IMG/VR virus record: IMGVR_UViG_3300033498_000048
Location: 224,001 to 288,000 of that record
DNA from: a virus
Lineage: Duplodnaviria; Caudoviricetes
Reading direction: 5' to 3' (one strand)
Length of the DNA stretch: 64,000 nucleotides
Part shown: positions 30,250 to 63,395 of the stretch, piece by piece
Position numbering within the stretch: the first letter of the stretch is position 1
How the letters are laid out: every line of letters starts with the position of its first letter
Notes under the pieces: generated by a model
The model's input: the letters and a program-made list of their open reading frames with translations, nothing else
Databases searched by the model: none
Told to the model about the DNA's origin: nothing
Position numbers and translations under genes: made by a program

Positions 30250-30828
30250 TCAATAAGTTAGCATTAAGTAATTAATAATAGCGTCCAAGTGCTATCTTAT
30301 TGATATTATTAGTGTATGACTACTCCAACTAAATCAACGACTTAGCACTTGCATAGAGTATTAGTTATATAACCGTTCTAAATGCTAACCTATTGATTTT
30401 GTTACATATCACCTAAAATATTAAGAATCAACAAGTTAGCACTTGTAGCCATTAGGTAATTAATAACACCATCCAAGTGCTAAGTCATTGATTTTGTATA
30501 ATTGACAAGAATGTATGGATTTAACCGTAAATCAACAAGATAGCACTTGCAGCTTGGTATTAATTATATAACTGTTGCAAGTGCTAACTTATTGATTTTG
30601 TTATTGGCTATTAAAACAATTAAGAATCAAGTGGTTAGCACCTATTGGTATCAAGTGGTTACTATTGTCAATAAATTGAGTAAAATGACCTAGTAATTAC
30701 AGTTACACTACAAACAATAGGTTAGCACTTGCAGTGTGTTATTAATTACTTAATGGCTACAAGTGCTAACTTATTGTTTTATATACAACACATAAACACA
30801 CCTAAATCAATGACTTAGCACTTGGACG
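30248..30828. repeat. palindromic-element array 1 (4 intact, 1 degenerate, 2 half units)
   Basis: Units AATCAAYRRSTTAGCACTT-N30-AAGTGCTAASYYRTTGATT at 30331, 30426, 30529 and 30712; spacing about 90-105 bp. Confidence 0.95.
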
Positions 30829-50838: not shown

Positions 50839-51127
50839 GAATCAATAAGTTAGCCCTTACAGGTGTTGGTTAATTAGTAAACGGTTCCAAGTGCTAGCTT
50901 GTTGATATTGTTAATGTTTATTATACTCAATTATATCAATAAGTTAGCACTTGGAACGTGGTATTAGATATATAACCGATGCAAGTGCTAAGTCATTGAT
51001 TCTTAATAATTGACAGTAAAAATTTAGCACTTATGGAGTGGCATTAGTTACATAACTGTTCCAAGTGCTAACCTGTTGACATTATTAGGACACAATCATT
51101 ACCAGTTAAATCAATAAGTTATAGCAT
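50839..51127. repeat. palindromic-element array 2 (3 units plus a half)
   Basis: 30-nt cores at 50859-50888, 50953-50982 and 51033-51062. Confidence 0.95.
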
Positions 51128-54613: not shown

Positions 54614-55315
54614 TTATTTGTTATAAAATGGGTTATCGTCAATTTCACTTAAAGGGTTTTCTTTAAGCATACTTTTAACCATGTCTAATATCTTTGTATC
54701 CAAATGGTTTTTTAACCAAGGGTTAGATGTCATATTTATAGACGAGTCAACATTCATATCCATCAACTTTTGTATTTTTTTATTGGCTTCTTGTCCCAAT
54801 TCGTTAATGATAACATCGTCTAACTTTTTAACACCTTGATAAATTGCATTAGAAATATCATTAAACGAATCAGCTCGTGATAACCAAGACATTCTTCTTG
54901 AAAATTCACGTTCAGCTTTCCCAGTTTCAGTGTTAATAGACCATTGTGGAACTGAACCATTATTTATTCTACGCAATATTTCAACTCGGTCTTTTTGAAC
55001 TTTAACAGCGTTTTCCCATATTGTTGGATAATCACGTCTTAATTCAGATATATCATCTTGTTGGACTAATGCAATAATAGCTTGCATTTTATCGAAAATT
55101 ATTTTATCAATTTCAACCTTTTCAGGTGATTCTTGATATATGTCTTGTTTTATTTTATTGATTTTTTTATGTAAACTGGGATTACCTCCAGCTAAGATGT
55201 TTCCATCATGGTCAACATATATTGACCCACCTCTGCCCATTCGTTTCCAAGTTCCACCAGATAATGCCTTTTGGTCAGCCTCTGACAAAACCATAAAATC
55301 TTTAATGCTTATCAT
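54614..55315 (-). CDS. putative internal head protein
   Basis: MISIKDFMVLSEAD; W..MGRGGSIYVD.DGNILAG motif. Confidence 0.55.
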   Translation of the reverse strand: MISIKDFMVLSEADQKALSGGTWKRMGRGGSIYVDHDGNILAGGNPSLHKKINKIKQDIYQESPEKVEIDKIIFDKMQAIIALVQQDDISELRRDYPTIWENAVKVQKDRVEILRRINNGSVPQWSINTETGKAEREFSRRMSWLSRADSFNDISNAIYQGVKKLDDVIINELGQEANKKIQKLMDMNVDSSINMTSNPWLKNHLDTKILDMVKSMLKENPLSEIDDNPFYNK

Positions 55316-55450
55316 ATTAATTTATCCTATATTATGGTTGGTTTTGTTGTATTTATTATATTTGAATACTAGGCTATAGAGTCATTTATTACTAATGGTC
55401 CAGTTTCTTTTCGTATCATCATGGACATTAGATTCAACTTAGATACGACT

Positions 55451-55524
55451 CATCTTATGTCCAGTGTGTTATATTAAGTTTAGTATAAATACAAGAAATC
55501 AAATAACACACTGGACATAAGATG
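55451..55524 (+). promoter_or_regulatory. translational-sequestration hairpin with an internal late promoter
   Basis: Perfect 22-bp inverted repeat 55451-55472 / 55503-55524 covering the ATG at 55522; TATAAATA at 55484-55491 in the loop. Confidence 0.85.
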
Positions 55525-56325
55525 GCAAAATTAATAAACGACAAGTATTACACTCCATTAGAATTGGCTCAATATTGTATAGATAAAACGCATCAAATTA
55601 TAGGGAATAAAAATATCACTGAATATATTGAACCATCAGCTGGAAATGGGTCATTTAGTTTATTATTACCTGATTGTATTGCATTTGATATTGAACCTGA
55701 GCATCCATCAATTATCAAACAAGACTTTTTAATGATTGATATACCACATAAATCTGGACGATGTGTTATTGGGAATCCTCCATTTGGAAAAAACAATTTA
55801 TTATATAGGAGGTTTTGTGATAAAAGCTTTAATATTGCTGATTATGTTGCTTACATTTTACCTATCAGTCAATATAATAACAGAAATCTAATTTACAAAT
55901 TTGATTTAATTTATAGTGAAAAGCTTAATCAGGTGTTGTTTAGTTCGGCTAAACAAGTTCCAGTTTGTTTTAACATTTATAAAAGACCATTAAGTGGAAT
56001 TTACAATAAACGTCCTAAATTATACCACAAATATATTAAGTTTATATATAAAACTAGGCACTCGAACGAAATCATCAATGATTTTGATGTGATAATATGT
56101 GCATGGGGGAGTAATGTTGGTAAACCAATAACAGATTTAAATGCTCCTAGATGGACATCAAGTATGTACATTAAATTTATTGATGGACTAGATACTTCAA
56201 TTAAAAGCAAACTAATAGAATCAATATCAAATGTTGATTGGAAACTCAAATATAGTATGCCTAGAAATGGGTCAATATCATATTGGCATATTTATAATTA
56301 TCTAAATGAAATTGTTAAGGAGTAA
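55522..56325 (+). CDS. N6-adenine DNA methyltransferase-like protein
   Basis: DKYYTP, IEPSAGNGSF (SAM motif I), FDIEP, DFL, IGNPPFG (motif IV). Confidence 0.85.
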   Translation: MAKLINDKYYTPLELAQYCIDKTHQIIGNKNITEYIEPSAGNGSFSLLLPDCIAFDIEPEHPSIIKQDFLMIDIPHKSGRCVIGNPPFGKNNLLYRRFCDKSFNIADYVAYILPISQYNNRNLIYKFDLIYSEKLNQVLFSSAKQVPVCFNIYKRPLSGIYNKRPKLYHKYIKFIYKTRHSNEIINDFDVIICAWGSNVGKPITDLNAPRWTSSMYIKFIDGLDTSIKSKLIESISNVDWKLKYSMPRNGSISYWHIYNYLNEIVKE

Positions 56326-56331
56326 CATTAT

Positions 56332-56820
56332 ATGGCTAAAAGAAAAACAGCACAAGATAAAGAAGCTGAATACCAAAACAACCCTTGGATGTTTAATAAT
56401 GAACCGTTCAATGATTGCAAACAATATGCTGGATTTGTTTATGAAATAATAGACTTAGAAACCAGTAAACGCTATATTGGAAAAAAGTTTTTTTGGAGTA
56501 TGAAACGGGTTCCAGGTAGAAAAAACCGAATCACTGTAGAATCTACATGGAGAGAATATTATAGTTCCAGTGTTGAGATTAAGGCACTGGTTAAAGAATT
56601 TGGAAAAGCTAGATTTAAGCGAACCATATTATCAATACACGAATTAGAAAGGGATGTTAATTATGAAGAAACAAGGCAATTATATACTAAAAAGGTATTA
56701 TCAGAAGTGAATGGTGATGGTGAATTGGTTTATTATAATGGAAACATTGAAGGTAAACGATTTTCTAATCTTTGTATTGGAATAGAAAATCGTAGTTTAT
56801 TTGCAATGGAAGCAATTTAA
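56332..56820 (+). CDS. GIY-YIG family endonuclease
   Basis: GFVYEI......RYIGKK, ES.W..YYSS, YYNGNI. Confidence 0.85.
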   Translation: MAKRKTAQDKEAEYQNNPWMFNNEPFNDCKQYAGFVYEIIDLETSKRYIGKKFFWSMKRVPGRKNRITVESTWREYYSSSVEIKALVKEFGKARFKRTILSIHELERDVNYEETRQLYTKKVLSEVNGDGELVYYNGNIEGKRFSNLCIGIENRSLFAMEAI

Positions 56821-56834
56821 TAAAGTTTTTATTA

Positions 56835-57071
56835 TTAGTCCACAATAAAAGATATGTTATCATAGCCACTAAAATGGTGTAACTTTGGAAACACCGAAAT
56901 GGTAAACCAACAACCAAACTCAAAGTAGTCGTTCATCATTTTGTCTTTAGAACACCCAAATTTATTCTTTACATTAACACCAGTTGATAAATCCAAACTC
57001 GTAGAGGTAAATTCGCACCCATTACTAGAAGTGTGTTGGATAACAATTATTGATTTTATAGATGTGGACAT
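56835..57071 (-). CDS. hypothetical early protein
   Basis: 78 aa with AAGGA RBS, behind the promoter at 57104-57132. Confidence 0.55.
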   Translation of the reverse strand: MSTSIKSIIVIQHTSSNGCEFTSTSLDLSTGVNVKNKFGCSKDKMMNDYFEFGCWFTISVFPKLHHFSGYDNISFIVD

Positions 57072-57103
57072 AATGATTCCTTTAAGTTCTCAATGATGGT
57101 TAT

Positions 57104-57132
57104 ACTATAATGTGTTGGAGTTATAATGTCAA
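57104..57132 (-). promoter_or_regulatory. sigma70 promoter overlapping the end of repeat array 3
   Basis: TTGACA-N17-TATAGT on the minus strand. Confidence 0.75.
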
Positions 57133-57373
57133 TCAATATGTTAGCATTTGCAACGGTTAAGTAACTAACACATTCATTGATTGTGTTGTCATAAATACTT
57201 GCTGTAATAGAATCAATGAGTTAGCACTTGGAGCTATTACATAATTAATAACAATGTCCAAGTGCTAACTCATTGATAGTTATACTATTCACATCAATTA
57301 TGAAAAATCAATGGGTTAGCACTTGGAACTATCATATAATTACTAACACGCTGCAAGTGCTAACTTATTGATA
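57131..57373. repeat. palindromic-element array 3 (2 intact plus 1 degenerate unit)
   Basis: 30-nt cores at 57230-57259 and 57325-57354. Confidence 0.95.
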
Positions 57374-57375
57374 GG

Positions 57376-58059
57376 TCAACCAACACCAATAAGGTTTTGA
57401 ACTGGGTCAATGATTACTAATTCCTTTGTGCTTGGACGTATCATAAAATTATCACTATGTAAATCACTCATAAAGTTTTTAAACAAAGGCTCGATTAATC
57501 GCAAAGCTTTTATTAAATTATCATCTGTAATTCTGGATTTAAGTTTCAAACGTCTAGTTGGGTTTGCAAATTGTTGTCTAATATCAAGATACAAGTCATT
57601 TAAGTTTCTGTAGCTATTAAATGGGTCAAAAAAACCCAATGATTTAAACATATTCCATACAAATTTAGCATCTTCATGGAATAACGGCATTAAACGTTCT
57701 ACTACCATGACCAGCATATATTTTTCTTGTGTTGGTTGTATCAATGTTCTATATTTTAAAAAGTCAATATCATCTTCTGTTAATTCTGAATTGTCATACA
57801 TCTTATAGGTATAAACTTTTGGAAAATATGGATTATTTTCGTGATTAACACACAATCTTAAAAATTGAACAGAAGCATCATTCTCACCTGTTACATTAAC
57901 AACCTTTATAATCTTGTTAGCATCTTTAGTGTGAGCATATACCAAGGCTTGAACTCCAGACCCTAATAGCTTTTTATCTTTCATTATACCATTGAATTTT
58001 GTATCAGATTTAGGGAGTTGTAATTTAACTTCCCTAATATAGTTTTGATAGGACAACAT
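57376..58059 (-). CDS. Ser/Thr protein kinase-like protein with capsid-targeting-like N-terminus
   Basis: MLSYQNYIRE; LGSGVQALVY (Gly loop), IIKV, FPKVY, VERL, DLHSDNFM (catalytic loop), VIIDP. Confidence 0.85.
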   Translation of the reverse strand: MLSYQNYIREVKLQLPKSDTKFNGIMKDKKLLGSGVQALVYAHTKDANKIIKVVNVTGENDASVQFLRLCVNHENNPYFPKVYTYKMYDNSELTEDDIDFLKYRTLIQPTQEKYMLVMVVERLMPLFHEDAKFVWNMFKSLGFFDPFNSYRNLNDLYLDIRQQFANPTRRLKLKSRITDDNLIKALRLIEPLFKNFMSDLHSDNFMIRPSTKELVIIDPVQNLIGVG

Positions 58060-58078
58060 TTATTATCTCCATGTAGTA

Positions 58079-58436
58079 GTGAGTTAGCACTTGCGATAGG
58101 TATATAATTAACAACACTGTTTCCAAGTGCTAACTCGTTGATTTAATTATAGTAAATATTTATGGTAATGGAATAAATAGGTTAGCACTTGGAACGGTTA
58201 TACAATTAACTAACACCTGCAAGTGCTAACCTATTGATTCTTAGTAATTGACAATGATTGTAACTTAACCAACTATCAATGACTTAGCACTTAGACACAT
58301 TAGGTAATTACTAACAATGCCCAAGTGCTAACGCATTGATTTAATTGAGTTTAGTGAATGTTATTATAATCAACAAGTTAGCACTTGGAACGGTTATATA
58401 ATTAAGACCACACTGCAAGTGCTAACTTATTGATTC
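58079..58436. repeat. palindromic-element array 4 (4 units)
   Basis: Cores at 58093-58124 (32 nt), 58191-58220, 58293-58322 and 58387-58416. Confidence 0.95.
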
Positions 58437-58467
58437 TTATACACAACTTTACATAATAAGGAACAAA

Positions 58468-58617
58468 ATGAACATAATATATTTAATGTGGGTTATTCAC
58501 AATGTAATTATTCATCCATTAATGATGCTTATGTCTGTTAGTAAGGCTAACGCATTACACGATGCGAATGCAATTTGGGCTTTTAAATTGAACACGAAGG
58601 TAATCAACGATGCTTAA
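58468..58617 (+). CDS. small hypothetical protein, not in the ORF track
   Basis: 49 aa MNIIYLMWVIHNVIIHPL...LHD; AAGGA RBS. Confidence 0.45.
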   Translation: MNIIYLMWVIHNVIIHPLMMLMSVSKANALHDANAIWAFKLNTKVINDA

Positions 58618-58639
58618 CTTTAAACAGTTTTGTTTATTA

Positions 58640-59235
58640 GAATCTACATTAAGTGATAATGAAATTATTGAATTGGGAAACCGAATAAGAAATACTTTTA
58701 AAACAAATGATGTTGAAATGAACTATAATTTATTATCAACATTCATATCTTAATATTGGAAATAGATGTCCAAGTTTTTTCATTAAACACTAAGAAAAAA
58801 GTTGTGAAAACTAATGTCACATTTGGAAATGTTCAAATTGAAAATCAATCATCGCTGAGTGAAAAACGATTTATTGAATTGGCTGGAATGGTAACTGATT
58901 TATTGAGTAAGTTTCAATGTGAATATAAAAAGGCATTATCTGGAAAATTAAAATTCGTATTCAAACCATCATCCGAACAAAAGGCAAAAGCAACTTACAA
59001 ATCAGAGCTTGATGAAATATGGATAAGCAATTCAACAGAAACTTTAAAATTATTTACAAAAGAGTTATATGGATTGCCAAATTGGTTTAATTCAAGTTAC
59101 ATAACATCTAAGTATTCGGTTAGTGCTGGATTCGCAGATGAAGAAAATTGGGCTGAATGTTTCGCAATTGCTTTCTTTGGTCAATCAATTCATCCCAGAT
59201 TATACAAATTGGCAAAATGTAATAAACAAATTTAA
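58640..59235 (+). pseudogene. probable remnant of a zincin-like metallopeptidase gene
   Basis: ORF 58756 has a weak TTG start; A.Y....DEIWI and SKY......EENWAECFA motifs are present, but no HExxH lies between them. Confidence 0.35.
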
Positions 59236-59257
59236 AATAGGCTTAGGTTGTTTCTAC

Positions 59258-59495
59258 GTCCAAGTGCTAATTCATTGTCAATTACTATAATCAACAAGTT
59301 AGCACTTACAGCTTGGTCTTAATTATATAACTGTTCCAAGTGCTAAGTCATTGATAGTTAGTAATTGACATAAATAGTAACTTAACCAACTATCAATGAC
59401 TTAGCACTTGGTCATTGTTAGTAATTACCTAATGTGTCTAAGTGCTAACACATTGATTTAATTGAGTATAATATTAACAAGTTAGCACTTAGACG
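59258..59495. repeat. palindromic-element array 5 (2 units plus 2 half units)
   Basis: 30-nt cores at 59308-59337 and 59410-59439. Confidence 0.95.
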
Positions 59496-59544
59496 ATGTT
59501 AATGATTATGGTGTATTGAACAAATCTCGACATACGCAATAGAA

Positions 59545-60003
59545 TCATTGTTTGCGTTTTTTAATACCTAAATCATATTCATTCATAATTTGGAAAGTAA
59601 AGTTGTGTAATCTAGCCCATTCGATAGCTGCTTTCCACTTATCCTGATTTACTTGCCATGTAATACATTCATTAATAAAAGTTGTTTGTCGTTTACGTCC
59701 TTTAACTGGAGGTATAGTTTGGTCATGTGGTTTAATTTCAATAATAATGTCTTTTAATGAACCATCTTTCATTTTCACTTTAATAAAGAAGTCTGGAAAA
59801 TACCTTCTTAATTTCTTATCAGCTTGACTATAATATTGTATTGCTTGAATTTCACTACCCCATAATTCAACAGATGGATTCATATCACACCAACGCATAA
59901 ACTTAGTTTCCCATGAACTCCTAGATATAACATTGGTACTGTCTCCAACATATTTCTCTTTGTTTTTAACCACATATTTAATTGGTGTCGGAAATCTTTT
60001 CAT
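59545..60003 (-). CDS. gp4: head completion protein
   Basis: NKEKYVGD...VISRSSWE.KFM.WCD.NP.V..WGSE, RRYFPDF, IEIKP..QT, NQDKWKAA. Confidence 0.95.
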   Translation of the reverse strand: MKRFPTPIKYVVKNKEKYVGDSTNVISRSSWETKFMRWCDMNPSVELWGSEIQAIQYYSQADKKLRRYFPDFFIKVKMKDGSLKDIIIEIKPHDQTIPPVKGRKRQTTFINECITWQVNQDKWKAAIEWARLHNFTFQIMNEYDLGIKKRKQ

Positions 60004-60015
60004 TTGTATTACATT

Positions 60016-60023
60016 TATAAATA
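60016..60023 (+). promoter_or_regulatory. T4-type late promoter
   Basis: TATAAATA 25 nt before gp48. Confidence 0.7.
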
Positions 60024-60047
60024 TAATATTTATGTGAGATTAATACT

Positions 60048-60860
60048 ATGTCAATATTAGATGTATTTGATTCTGCTGTTAGTTCTGTAGCTAATACGGT
60101 TTTAAAATCAGTAACATCATTTGAAATTGGAAAATCATTTGGAATTCTTAAATATCCAGCCACAGTTGGGGAAGGTGTTTTTCCATCATGTATTCAATTT
60201 CAAGAATATAAACGGAGCAGTCCAATGGAAAGCTTACCTTGGACTACAATTTATATGTATATGCCTGAAAAGGTATCTAATCCATCACAAATTTCATGGG
60301 AAGGAAATGACACATTAGCAGCAAGTCAAATGAAAAAAATGAATGATGGGCAGTTTACCAGTGCTGCTGGGGCGTGGGCTTCAAGTTCTATTGCACAAAT
60401 ATTAAATGAAAAGGCTAGTATGTTGGGTACAGATTTGGACACTGTATTAGGTGCTGGTGGAAATATGATACAGAATCCATATTTAACTATGATGTTTAAG
60501 GGTGTAGACCAACGTGATTTTTCATTTGAATTTAAGTTGTTTCCACATTCTAGGTCTGAGTGTGATAATATTCACAATATCGTAACTGCATTTAGGGCTG
60601 CTGCATATCCAACTGGAAATTCAAATGATGCGTTATTAGGTTATCCTAGCGAATTTGAAATCCAATATCTATTTAACGGACAACAAAATAAATGGTTAAA
60701 TAAGTTCAAACGAAGTGTAATAACTAATGTGGATGTAGATTATACAGGTTCAGGTGGATGGACAGTTACACGAGATGGTTTTCCATCAGAAATATCACTG
60801 ACAATAGAATTTAAAGAAATGCAAGTATTAACATCATCTGATATACAAGCAGGATATTAA
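60048..60860 (+). CDS. gp48: baseplate tail-tube cap
   Basis: IYMYMP, NPY..MMFKG...RDFSFEFK..P.S..E, YPSEF.I.Y, VDYT, L.IEFKE. Confidence 0.85.
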   Translation: MSILDVFDSAVSSVANTVLKSVTSFEIGKSFGILKYPATVGEGVFPSCIQFQEYKRSSPMESLPWTTIYMYMPEKVSNPSQISWEGNDTLAASQMKKMNDGQFTSAAGAWASSSIAQILNEKASMLGTDLDTVLGAGGNMIQNPYLTMMFKGVDQRDFSFEFKLFPHSRSECDNIHNIVTAFRAAAYPTGNSNDALLGYPSEFEIQYLFNGQQNKWLNKFKRSVITNVDVDYTGSGGWTVTRDGFPSEISLTIEFKEMQVLTSSDIQAGY

Positions 60861-61424
60861 ATGGGAATGTTTAATAAGTTTGAAAGATACAAATACACAT
60901 TAGATGGAATAATAACAAATGTTACTAATATTGGAATGTCAATATTAATTGATACAGTTAGAAATGTAGACAATCGTTTTGCATTTCAAAAGTATGTAAT
61001 GTCTGAAAATGAGATTCCAGAAAGTATTAGTGAAAAAATGTATGGTGATGCTAAGTATTATTGGACTATATTGGTTGTAAATGATATTATCAATCCATTT
61101 CACGATTTACCATTAGACTCAGAAACATTGATTGATTACATTAAAGACAAATATGTTGATATATATGAAATCCACCATTATATTAATATGTCAGACAATT
61201 CATTGGTTGATGATTATAATACTGATATTATTAGAAATAGTAATGACCCGATACCAGATACCATTCGAGCAATTACTAATTATGAATATGAATATGAATT
61301 AAATGAAAGTAAAAGGAACATTAAAATTGTTAATCCAGTATTTATAAAGGACTTTACCTATTCATATATGAAAGCATTGGACACAAAAATAGAATCTACA
61401 ATTCAAGAGGAAGACATATTATGA
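60861..61424 (+). CDS. gp53: baseplate wedge subunit
   Basis: PE.IS..MYGD..YYW.ILVVNDIINPF.D.P, NY.YEYE.NE.KRNIK. Confidence 0.93.
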   Translation: MGMFNKFERYKYTLDGIITNVTNIGMSILIDTVRNVDNRFAFQKYVMSENEIPESISEKMYGDAKYYWTILVVNDIINPFHDLPLDSETLIDYIKDKYVDIYEIHHYINMSDNSLVDDYNTDIIRNSNDPIPDTIRAITNYEYEYELNESKRNIKIVNPVFIKDFTYSYMKALDTKIESTIQEEDIL

Positions 61425-62665
61425 TTAGTGACAAGGGTATATTACCAACAGACTTATCACAATTTCAAGTGACGATTAATGGAAAAGATGTATCACAAGC
61501 TATTAGTGGAGTTATAATCTATCAAGATGTTTTATCTCCTATATGGACTTGTGAATTGCAAGTTGCTGATACCAACAATTTAATTATGAATGTTCCAATA
61601 GCTCCAGGTTCAACTATTGAAATTGAAATAGAATCTAATCAGGGATTCTCATTAAATGGTAGTAAATCTTATGAGTTTGTGGTATTTGGAATTAATGATA
61701 AAAAGTTTATTAATTCAAAGTTCCAAACCTATATGGTTAGTGGTGTTAGTCCAGAAATAATAAAGAATCAATCTATTAGGGTAAAAAAATCATATCAAGC
61801 ACAAAGTCCAACCGACATTGCAACAAACATCATTAAGAACTCATTAGGAGCATCATTAGAAGTTGATTCAAGTGAAAATACAATAACCACAATTGTATCT
61901 AATTTAAGTCCATTTACTGCTGTTAATAAAATGTGTAAAGTTGCCTTGTGTAATGGAGCAGCCGATATGATATTATTCCAAATTGATACTGGAAAATTCG
62001 CCATGAAAAGTATCGAAAAAATGTATTCAGATACAGATTCTGGGGTTACTTTTATATTAAAACCTGCTGGAATAAAAGACAATTCTGGTAATTCCACCAC
62101 TGATTTGACATTAAGTATCGTTGATTATAATATGGAACATTTCAATGCTATGAGTAGTTTGGGTAGTGGAATGTTTGGTAATAAAACCGTTTCATTTGAT
62201 TTTATGTCTAAAGCATTTACTTCAAAAACGTTTAAATATGGTGATGATAATAAGCAGGACAATTCAAAAAAGTCTTGGGATAGTGAAACCTTTGAATCTC
62301 CAAATTCTAACATCACGTTTGTTCCTAAACACACCAATCTCCATACCGATGATACAGCTTTTACATCAATGGACAAATGGGTTGGGTCAAGGAAAAGTTC
62401 AATAATGAAGCTTGAGCAAGATAGGTTAATATTGCAAGTTCCAGGTGCTGTTAAGGCGTGGGAATTGATAGGTAAATCGTTTAATGTAGATATGCCATCA
62501 CAACAATCTATGTCCGATGGAGAAGACTTAGACCTATATTATAAGGGTGCTTACCTATGTATAGCAATAGCTCATTTTTATGGTAAACATGGAGCATGGG
62601 TAAATATTGCTGGTGTTAAAAAGAGATTAGAAAAGTCAATGAATAGTAGCTTTTCTATTAGTTAG
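61421..62665 (+). CDS. baseplate hub protein (gp27-like)
   Basis: IYQD..SP.W, S.RV.KSY, F...S.E.M, VPG......G, Y.G.YL...I.H; baseplate operon context. Confidence 0.55.
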   Translation: MISDKGILPTDLSQFQVTINGKDVSQAISGVIIYQDVLSPIWTCELQVADTNNLIMNVPIAPGSTIEIEIESNQGFSLNGSKSYEFVVFGINDKKFINSKFQTYMVSGVSPEIIKNQSIRVKKSYQAQSPTDIATNIIKNSLGASLEVDSSENTITTIVSNLSPFTAVNKMCKVALCNGAADMILFQIDTGKFAMKSIEKMYSDTDSGVTFILKPAGIKDNSGNSTTDLTLSIVDYNMEHFNAMSSLGSGMFGNKTVSFDFMSKAFTSKTFKYGDDNKQDNSKKSWDSETFESPNSNITFVPKHTNLHTDDTAFTSMDKWVGSRKSSIMKLEQDRLILQVPGAVKAWELIGKSFNVDMPSQQSMSDGEDLDLYYKGAYLCIAIAHFYGKHGAWVNIAGVKKRLEKSMNSSFSIS

Positions 62666-62687
62666 TAAATTTATTTCCAAGACAATT

Positions 62688-63395
62688 ATGCCAACCTTAG
62701 ATACATCTTTAAAATATGAACGTGATGCTGCTTTACAAATTCATGGAAAAACAGCTTCTATTACACAAAATGGTTTACCAGTTACCAATGTTACCAATTT
62801 TGTTAATCTATTATCAATGGGGTTAGCCAAATCTAATAAATATTTTGTTGAATTTAGATTACCGAAGGGTTTTAGTGAATCAGCATTTAGTCCAGGTGTC
62901 AATGCCGAAAGTGCTTCAACACACATTAGAGCAGTTGAAAACATATTAAATAACAATAACACTATTGGATTAATGTGTCACACTCTAAGTATGCCAGCTA
63001 GAGCCTTAGAATCATATTCACACAAACAATTAGTTTCACCATATAAAGTTCCAAAGGGAATTGAAGAATATGAACCAGTTACGTTTAGCCTATATTCAAG
63101 TAGTGACTTAAACACCAGACATTATTTTGACGTGTGGCAGTCAACAGTTGTTAATGTTGGAAGTAATACCTTAAATTATTATGATGAGTATGTTTCAGAT
63201 GTGAACATTTATCTAATTGATGATGAAGGTAAATACTCTCCATATTTTATCACACTGTTCGAGGCATGGCCCATGAATATCGGTGAACTCCCATTATCTT
63301 ATTCATCTAACAATACATTCCAAACAGTTACCGTTACATTAGCTTACAAACACTGGAAATCATCATTCGACACCACTAAAATGGGTACTTTCTAA
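62688..63395 (+). CDS. gp54: baseplate tail-tube initiator (gp54-like)
   Basis: GLAKSNKYFVEF..P, C..LSMPAR, YEPVTF, R.YFDVWQ, Y.DEYV.DV.IY, L.EAWP..IG.L.LS. Confidence 0.7.
   Translation: MPTLDTSLKYERDAALQIHGKTASITQNGLPVTNVTNFVNLLSMGLAKSNKYFVEFRLPKGFSESAFSPGVNAESASTHIRAVENILNNNNTIGLMCHTLSMPARALESYSHKQLVSPYKVPKGIEEYEPVTFSLYSSSDLNTRHYFDVWQSTVVNVGSNTLNYYDEYVSDVNIYLIDDEGKYSPYFITLFEAWPMNIGELPLSYSSNNTFQTVTVTLAYKHWKSSFDTTKMGTF

Follow-up and report, generated by a model that had tools for sequence, protein, structure and literature searches.

The stretch of DNA examined here, in the following called the window, comprises 64,000 nucleotides (bases 224001-288000) of the 305,782-bp IMG/VR virus record IMGVR_UViG_3300033498_000048, which stems from a microbial-mat metagenome, has direct terminal repeats and a G+C content of 31%. 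Judged by T4-like matches in PHROG and tblastn searches (baseplate tail-tube cap, gp53-like wedge, tail tube, gp4-like head completion protein and DNA ligase), the genome is that of a distant, uncultured T4-like jumbo phage. In the right-hand part of the window, a cassette of small genes lies between arrays of an intergenic repeat unit (Table 1; positions are those of the window unless preceded by "genome"). The subject of this work is a pair of such units, A and A', of the form ATCAATGAC-TTAGCACTT / 30 nt / AAGTGCTAA-CNCATTGAT, which have co-linear flanks and arms and a central 30-nt core that is reversed in one of them relative to the other.

A reversed core between co-linear flanks

The core of A matches the reverse complement of the core of A' at 29 of 30 positions, the sole mismatch being located at 58320, and our recomputation thus returned the value given in a preliminary description of this DNA. 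When the two cores are compared in one direction, 16/30 positions agree, and the same score is obtained for core A against its own reverse complement. Quasi-palindromy of the core therefore fails to explain the match of 29/30. The flanks run in one direction, with 33/33 identical positions on the left (58260-58292 versus 59377-59409) and 27/28 on the right (58323-58350 versus 59440-59467), again as previously described; tested in the inverted sense, they agree at 16/28 positions each, and this agreement is confined to the palindromic arm. Over unit pairs in general, flank identity has a mean of 14.2/30 (standard deviation 3.1), and A/A' reach 26 and 21. Neither do the asymmetric arm triplets change sides: both A and A' have GAC on the left, and CGC and CAC are found on the right. 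It was therefore rightly noted before that the outer arm bases keep their orientation and that only the segment inside the stem is inverted, and the perfect 9-bp TTAGCACTT/AAGTGCTAA repeat sets the limits of the inversion. The patch that A and A' have come to share recently spans about 91 bp (89/91 identical, allowing for the reversed core) and extends from mid-linker to mid-linker, i.e., over one array period, with identity dropping at about 58260 and 58350. A chance origin of the motif is excluded, because TTAGCACTT-N20-45-AAGTGCTAA has 12 exact matches in the window and none in 100 shuffled versions.

A second pair of cores, 30445-30474 and 30731-30760, had been put forward as a further case. 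The inverted match of 26/30 was reproduced (14/30 in one direction), but the flanks of these units are unrelated in either sense (19-20/39 and 14-15/39), and the pair is therefore uninformative on inversion of the core alone.

The possibility that an assembly artefact had produced the arrangement, raised in the preliminary description, is unlikely. A MEGAHIT k141 contig of 305,617 bp deposited in ENA (assembly ERZ27248453; run SRR10915314) is 100% identical to the window over 54756-63235, and words of 141 nt span a whole unit plus both flanks; this contig probably rests on the same reads as the IMG/VR record. For the remaining arrays, a search for another independent assembly yielded only Logan contigs from one and the same run. 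Run-level data consisted of Logan contigs (k=31) from the four runs holding the stretch, and such contigs drop minor variants. They stop inside A, B' and A', as the shared 30-mers predict, and apparent joints or variant letters at the units turned out to be contigs of other arrays aligned at 85% likeness. Among the Logan contig matches listed, none carried a change at 59412 or 58320 diagnostic of a flipped copy, in contigs that by their nature lose minor forms.

Table 1. Repeat units, linkers and enclosed genes in the window. F and R denote the two core directions.
Feature	Position	Strand	Remarks
Unit with F core (30445-30474)	30436-30483	+	
Unit with R core (30731-30760)	30722-30769	-	26/30 inverted versus 30445-30474
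Two more units (57221, 57316; both F), 3' of the kinase-like gene	57221-57363	+	
Two more units (58084, with 32-nt core; 58182; both F)	58084-58229	+	
Linker S1 with TAGTAATTGACA motif	58230-58283	+	copy at 59347-59400, co-directional
Shared 91-bp patch, copy 1 (through unit A)	58260-58350	+	33/33, 29/30 inverted, 27/28
Left arm of A (ATCAATGAC+TTAGCACTT)	58275-58292	.	outer half fits IHF-type consensus WATCAANNNNTTR
Core of A, 30-nt polar, direction F	58293-58322	+	AGACAC ATTA GG TAATTA C TAAC AATGCCC
Right arm of A (AAGTGCTAA+CGCATTGAT)	58323-58340	.	sequence
Linker S2 between A and B	58332-58377	+	near-copy at genome 117913-117959 reverse-complemented, adjoining cores co-directional 28/30
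Unit B (core 58387-58416, F), final unit ahead of the + strand cassette	58378-58425	+	
Three small ORFan genes (49, 47, 159 aa), enclosed by A/A' and B/B'	58468-59235	+	opposite to neighbours
Half unit: right arm AAGTGCTAA without partner, 3' edge of cassette	59262-59270	.	
Unit B' (core 59308-59337, R)	59299-59346	-	core inverted versus B 26/30; left flank TATAATCAACAAG co-directional
Shared 91-bp patch, copy 2	59377-59467	+	flanks co-directional with copy 1, core inverted
Left arm of A' (ATCAATGAC+TTAGCACTT)	59392-59409	.	identical to left arm of A
Core of A', direction R	59410-59439	-	reverse complement of core A, 29/30
Right arm of A' (AAGTGCTAA+CACATTGAT)	59440-59457	.	sequence
Half unit: left arm TTAGCACTT without partner	59482-59490	.	

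Genome-wide occurrence and architecture of the units

Throughout the genome, the family has the architecture ATCAAT-NNN-TTAGCACTT / 30-nt polar core / AAGTGCTAA-NNN-ATTGAT with palindromic arms of 18-21 bp. Units with exact 9-mer arms number 59, and 92 units are found when at most one mismatch per 9-mer arm is allowed; in 81 of the latter the core is exactly 30 nt long. Once four spurious matches had been removed, 17 units remained within the window, where the arrays occupy 30342-30769, 50850-51071, 57221-57363, 58084-58425 and 59299-59448. All units are intergenic. Tandem units are common, and their linkers of about 45-48 nt result in a period near 95 bp. The core consensus GGAACAGTTATATAATTAATAACACGCTGC reads GGAACA-GTTA-TA-TAATTA-A-TAAC-ACGCTGC, a polar layout of 6+4+2+3 followed by 3+1+4+7. 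Two core classes, starting with GTTATATAA and ATTAGGTAA, respectively, often alternate along arrays.

The arms match the IHF-type consensus WATCAANNNNTTR in 70/92 cases on the left and 68/92 on the right, and these 138 arms account for more than half of the 221 matches to this consensus in the genome, for which about 55 are expected. A gene for HU or IHF was not found in the phage genome. Outside the 9-mers, the triplets of the left and the right arm vary independently of each other. Single-stranded, the 66-nt unit is predicted to form a long hairpin with a mean of -23 kcal/mol, and the core alone yields -2.5 kcal/mol compared with -2.1 kcal/mol for shuffled versions. The core as a structured RNA was rejected, as its folding is no better than that of shuffled sequence. 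An Rfam search returned no family at threshold and only generic microRNA-hairpin look-alikes with E values of 0.002 or worse; linkers (59329-59412), being enclosed by inverted arms, also score as generic hairpins, i.e., as sub-threshold microRNA-precursor look-alikes (E ~0.002).

About ten gene-proximal units are followed by a TTGACA-N17-TATAAT promoter and a Shine-Dalgarno sequence before the next gene. Behind several others, the gene starts after 23-40 nt with no promoter between, and linkers within arrays retain only a -35-like TTGACA. Genes that start directly behind units imply transcriptional read-through of these units. A consensus scan for intrinsic terminators found none, with a loop limit of 3-8 nt that leaves these hairpins out. 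The genes among the units are ORFans.

On the basis of these sequence features, the cassettes are best read as boundary elements between small early genes, akin to the PeSL elements of T4-type phages, and the arms as protein-docking palindromes with IHF-type boxes that are often followed by early promoters of the sigma70 type and are used as breakpoints in recombination. The cassettes appear to function at the level of DNA.

Relation between core, linker and gene direction

Genome-wide, 40 cores point in direction F and 41 in direction R. In co-directional gene contexts, 32 cores run with the genes and 26 against them, and a tally of gene-proximal units relative to their gene gives 16 F and 14 R. 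Core direction is unrelated to gene direction, and no flank asymmetry tied to core direction was found among the units. When both flanks of a unit pair are similar, the core is opposite to the flank sense in 7 of 11 pairs, of which A/A' is the best, and one-sided flank matches comprise 28 concordant and 20 discordant cases of core versus flank. The core of B' is inverted not only with respect to B but also to the units at genome 117960 and genome 291650, though the flanks common to them run co-directionally.

Reversal is not restricted to the cores. Because the arms alternate in direction along arrays, linkers also lie between inverted arms, and linker S2 and its near-copy elsewhere in the genome (Table 1) align as reverse complements with a score of 36, compared with 11 when they are aligned co-directionally. 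Both senses are likewise represented among linkers of the TTGACA and TTAATTGAG types. Cores and linkers flip apart from each other and are therefore independent modules with the arms as joints. Core, linker and gene direction are uncoupled throughout the genome, and core direction seems to be near-neutral.

Several functional assignments for parts of the unit were considered and discarded. The core does not behave as a promoter, because its direction ignores the genes and promoter-like matches in the region are at the level of shuffled sequence (20 versus 17.5, standard deviation 4.7). AAGTGCTAA as a T4 MotA box was rejected, as the flank consensus contains no conserved -10 element at the required distance. 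The half-sites match 8/9 positions of what we take to be the consensus of the CIRCE/HrcA operator, TTAGCACTC-N9-GAGTGCTAA; here, however, the spacing is 30 bp in 81/92 units and never 9, and this assignment was dropped as well.

How the reversed core may have arisen

The arrangement at A and A' is probably the outcome of recurrent evolutionary inversion between the inverted arms (9-21 bp) of PeSL-like boundary cassettes, by template switching or short-patch recombination, and not of a switch. A and A' would be recent duplicates (89/91) of a single array period of a dispersed element, and in one of them the piece between the arms would have been reversed during or after copying, with exchange points inside the perfect 9-bp TTAGCACTT/AAGTGCTAA repeats. 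Most likely, the polymerase switched template between the arms during replication (inverted-repeat spacer inversion), and an equivalent route would be a short conversion patch copied from a sister genome or from another unit aligned inversely. T4-type recombination-dependent replication should favour both routes. The process would be recurrent and essentially mutational and would act on cores and 29-47-nt linkers alike. The hairpin-mediated or inverted-repeat flip that was one of the two mechanisms initially proposed is thus retained as the likely origin.

The layout of the flanks bears on this point. Writing L and R for the left and right flanks, a single large inversion between units gives L-unit-L' and R'-unit-R and not L-unit-R twice, and the integration of an inverted mini-circle likewise leads to L-unit-L' and R'-unit-R; both were rejected by this reasoning. 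Reversal between the arms of one unit, or an equivalent patch, is favoured because it alone reproduces L-unit-R twice.

Precedents exist for this type of change. Reversible and recurrent spacer inversion through template switching has been described for yeast coding inverted repeats whose arms exceed 9 bp (PMC8604942), and hairpin loops of 5-50 bp in chloroplast intergenic regions, flanked by inverted repeats of 11-24 bp, flip repeatedly according to the statement in PMC12928735 that cites Kim and Lee (2005). As in these cases, reversal is confined here to what the short inverted repeats enclose and the flanks remain co-linear, the arms measure at least 9-11 bp (9 perfect bp at A and A', with imperfect extension to 18-21 bp), the inverted piece falls within the range of 2-50 bp, and the change appears recurrent and reversible, with direction scattered among related copies and no need for a dedicated enzyme. 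Unlike them, the units are repeated about 92 times as a family in a single phage genome and offer two alternating kinds of segment, cores and linkers.

A number of observations fit less well with such a mutational origin. Core direction agrees between adjacent units in 23 of 31 cases, more often than expected by chance (permutation p=0.004), so direction is not fully free; polarity may have some local importance, or arrays may grow faster than flips occur. Adjacent cores are no more alike than random pairs. The polar core layout is conserved in every copy, which would be odd if direction were neutral, and the units may also have a role at the level of RNA. Since 9 perfect bp are very short for recombinase-driven homologous exchange, the proposed mechanism leans on the analogy with template switching. 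Scanning IMG/VR for the exact-arm pattern yielded 18 contigs, all with unrelated single hairpins and none with a family unit, and the relaxed arm pattern gave no match; a metagenome scan showed no family unit at the loci among the matches listed, and relatives of the gp4-like protein reach at best 53% identity or less and come without the arms. No close relative was thus found by these scans. Low-level ongoing flipping and a fixed historical flip are indistinguishable from contigs.

Among the rival explanations, an active, programmed flip of the core during infection, driven by a protein or by the hairpin, would make the unit a phase switch in which, for example, a -10 element is re-aimed between two symmetric -35-like arms. 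The core does hold TATAAT-like hexamers, and together with the arm GAC these give ATGACT-N18-TATAAT (10/12) on a strand set by core direction; furthermore, the flip of A/A' is young when set against their point divergence (2 differences in 91 bp), F and R are equally frequent over the genome, and the co-orientation of neighbours hints that direction has a meaning. Yet core direction ignores the downstream gene (16 F/14 R; 32 versus 26), promoter-like matches do not exceed the shuffled expectation, and linkers flip also, so that the core is not special. Assembly at k=141 also passed through every unit to give the complete 305-kb contig. Neither Resolvase (PF00239) nor Phage_integrase (PF00589), for which controls were positive, nor Y1 transposase (PF01797) has a match in the complete genome, leaving such a switch without a serine or tyrosine recombinase or a Y1 transposase. 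To our knowledge, all invertible switches are far larger than 30 bp, with segments of at least about 100-300 bp, and 30 bp between two bound sites are too short to loop for intramolecular synapsis. It is therefore unlikely that a catalysed inversion, the other mechanism initially proposed, took place, as there is no recombinase domain, the segment is too short and no consequence for neighbouring genes is visible, and we regard a programmed phase switch as very improbable.

The dispersed, strictly intergenic position of the units in both directions would also be expected if each had been inserted independently, the 48-bp TTAGCACTT-core-AAGTGCTAA being a miniature mobile element bounded by terminal inverted repeats of 9 bp that entered two copies of the target ATCAATGAC/CNCATTGAT in either direction. 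The mosaic cores shared by distant loci and the outer arm triplets, which vary independently per side as target sequence would, are in line with this, whereas transposases of the tested families are absent, the flank consensus gives no sign of a target-site duplication, and of 12 loose matches a single one has the N6 spacing expected of an empty site. Independent insertion leaves the linkers flipped in place and the strict array period of about 95 bp unexplained, and the IMG/VR pattern scans found the family in no other viral contig; we consider it unlikely. The least probable of these explanations is a mis-join or mixed population in which the 1.07-kb cassette is reversed in the true genome or in part of the population, the flanks then forming two long palindromes. 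Such a reversal would make the cassette genes, now opposite to all four neighbours, co-directional with them; the shared stretch of 36-38 nt at which the Logan contigs break inside A, B' and A' is unresolvable at a word size of 31, and other units may have a flank of the L type on either side (genome 37684-37707). Against it, the MEGAHIT words of 141 nt cover a unit and, to its left and right, more than 45 nt each, the unbroken assembly indicates that the given form is at least dominant, and other unit pairs show discordance between flank and core without any such bracket. A bolder proposal, which we view as quite improbable, is that the arms are the sites of a hitherto unrecognised, protein-assisted module-flipping and shuffling system, using the IHF-type and TTAGCACTT boxes, that operates in every infection; the population would then be a mix of core and linker, perhaps even cassette, orientations, and the co-orientation of neighbours would reflect a function of polarity. 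Should reads reveal that the two forms coexist, these units would be candidates for a DNA rearrangement system of a kind new to phages.

With recurrent inversion between the arms as the preferred explanation, the family would follow the rule that anything between short inverted arms can reverse with its surroundings unmoved, and the arms would mark the breakpoints at which a giant phage rearranges its variable regions. Unless population data are at hand, core direction would be unfit to indicate shared ancestry or to argue for a switch.

Comparison with known repeat systems

Site-specific invertible switches comprise Hin/Gin/Cin, fimS with FimB/FimE, the invertons of Bacteroides and the R64 shufflon. 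The units resemble them in that a segment bounded by short inverted repeats occurs in both directions and in that IHF-type sites adjoin, as in the case of fimS; they differ in the absence of a recombinase gene, in the 30-bp segment and in a direction that is unrelated to the neighbouring genes. The REP/BIME elements of enterobacteria, among which BIME-1/RIP contains an IHF site, are likewise clustered extragenic imperfect palindromes in either direction with IHF boxes and mosaic combinations. Here, in contrast, the elements reside in a phage and not in a chromosome, no RAYT/Y1 transposase was found in the genome, the architecture is fixed at 18-30-18 with a period of about 95 bp, and an IHF-type box is located in each arm instead of between REPs.

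The closest correspondence is with the PeSL/PmSL cassettes of T4-type phages (Arbiol 2010, PMC2839356; Comeau 2014, PMC4122927). In both cases a T4-like phage carries conserved intergenic repeats among small ORFans of variable regions, a repeat able to form a stem-loop lies upstream of a sigma70-type promoter, a Shine-Dalgarno sequence and a start codon (here at about ten gene-proximal units), half elements are present at cassette edges, and the repeats act, here presumably, as recombination breakpoints. PeSLs are short GC-rich stem-loops, whereas the units described here combine a stem of 18-21 bp with a conserved polar 30-nt centre; many of them have no adjoining promoter, and they form phased arrays of about 95 bp with IHF-type boxes in the arms. 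The PeSL papers report deletions, insertions and mini-circles, and never inversions (PMC2839356, PMC4122927). The concept of regulatory cassettes as recombination joints would thereby be extended from deletions and insertions to inversions of 30-50 bp.

The bracketed cassette, neighbouring genes and related sequences

Viewed over 58284-59448, A/A' constitute a 48-bp inverted repeat (47/48), within which B/B' form a second, nested one (cores 26/30). The two pairs surround the cassette of 1.07 kb, and recombination between the repeats would flip the whole cassette. The two half units lie at the edges of the right-hand array, the first abutting the stop of the 159-aa open reading frame, and resemble scars left where an exchange terminated within a unit.

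Upstream of the cassette, 57376-58059 (-) encodes a 227-aa protein with weak similarity to T7 gp0.7-type protein kinase (PHROG 15752, E=3e-12), for which a large protein collection contained no close homologue (best 36% identity); this gene is bracketed by unit arrays on both sides. Further upstream, a gene resembling SegE-type GIY-YIG homing endonucleases is found at 56332-56820 (+). The gp4-like head completion protein is encoded downstream of the cassette, at 59545-60003 (-), and matches a TnsA-like endonuclease N-terminal domain (E=5e-19). Outside the window, the genome encodes a homologue of the recombination mediator UvsY (E=4e-29, genome 180310-180699), and UvsX was undetected with the RecA and Rad51 Pfam models. 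The UvsY gene adjoins a unit array at genome 179609-180134 and is situated directly behind it.

Two freshwater metagenome runs, X2 and X3, which are seemingly one data set filed twice, contain contigs of 151 nt that differ from the window by 1-4 letters. They lie scattered within 57872-59600, where they cover pieces of the kinase-like gene, of the cassette and of the gp4-like gene. The mat phage therefore seems to have a very close relative (97-99% identical) in fresh water, present at low depth.

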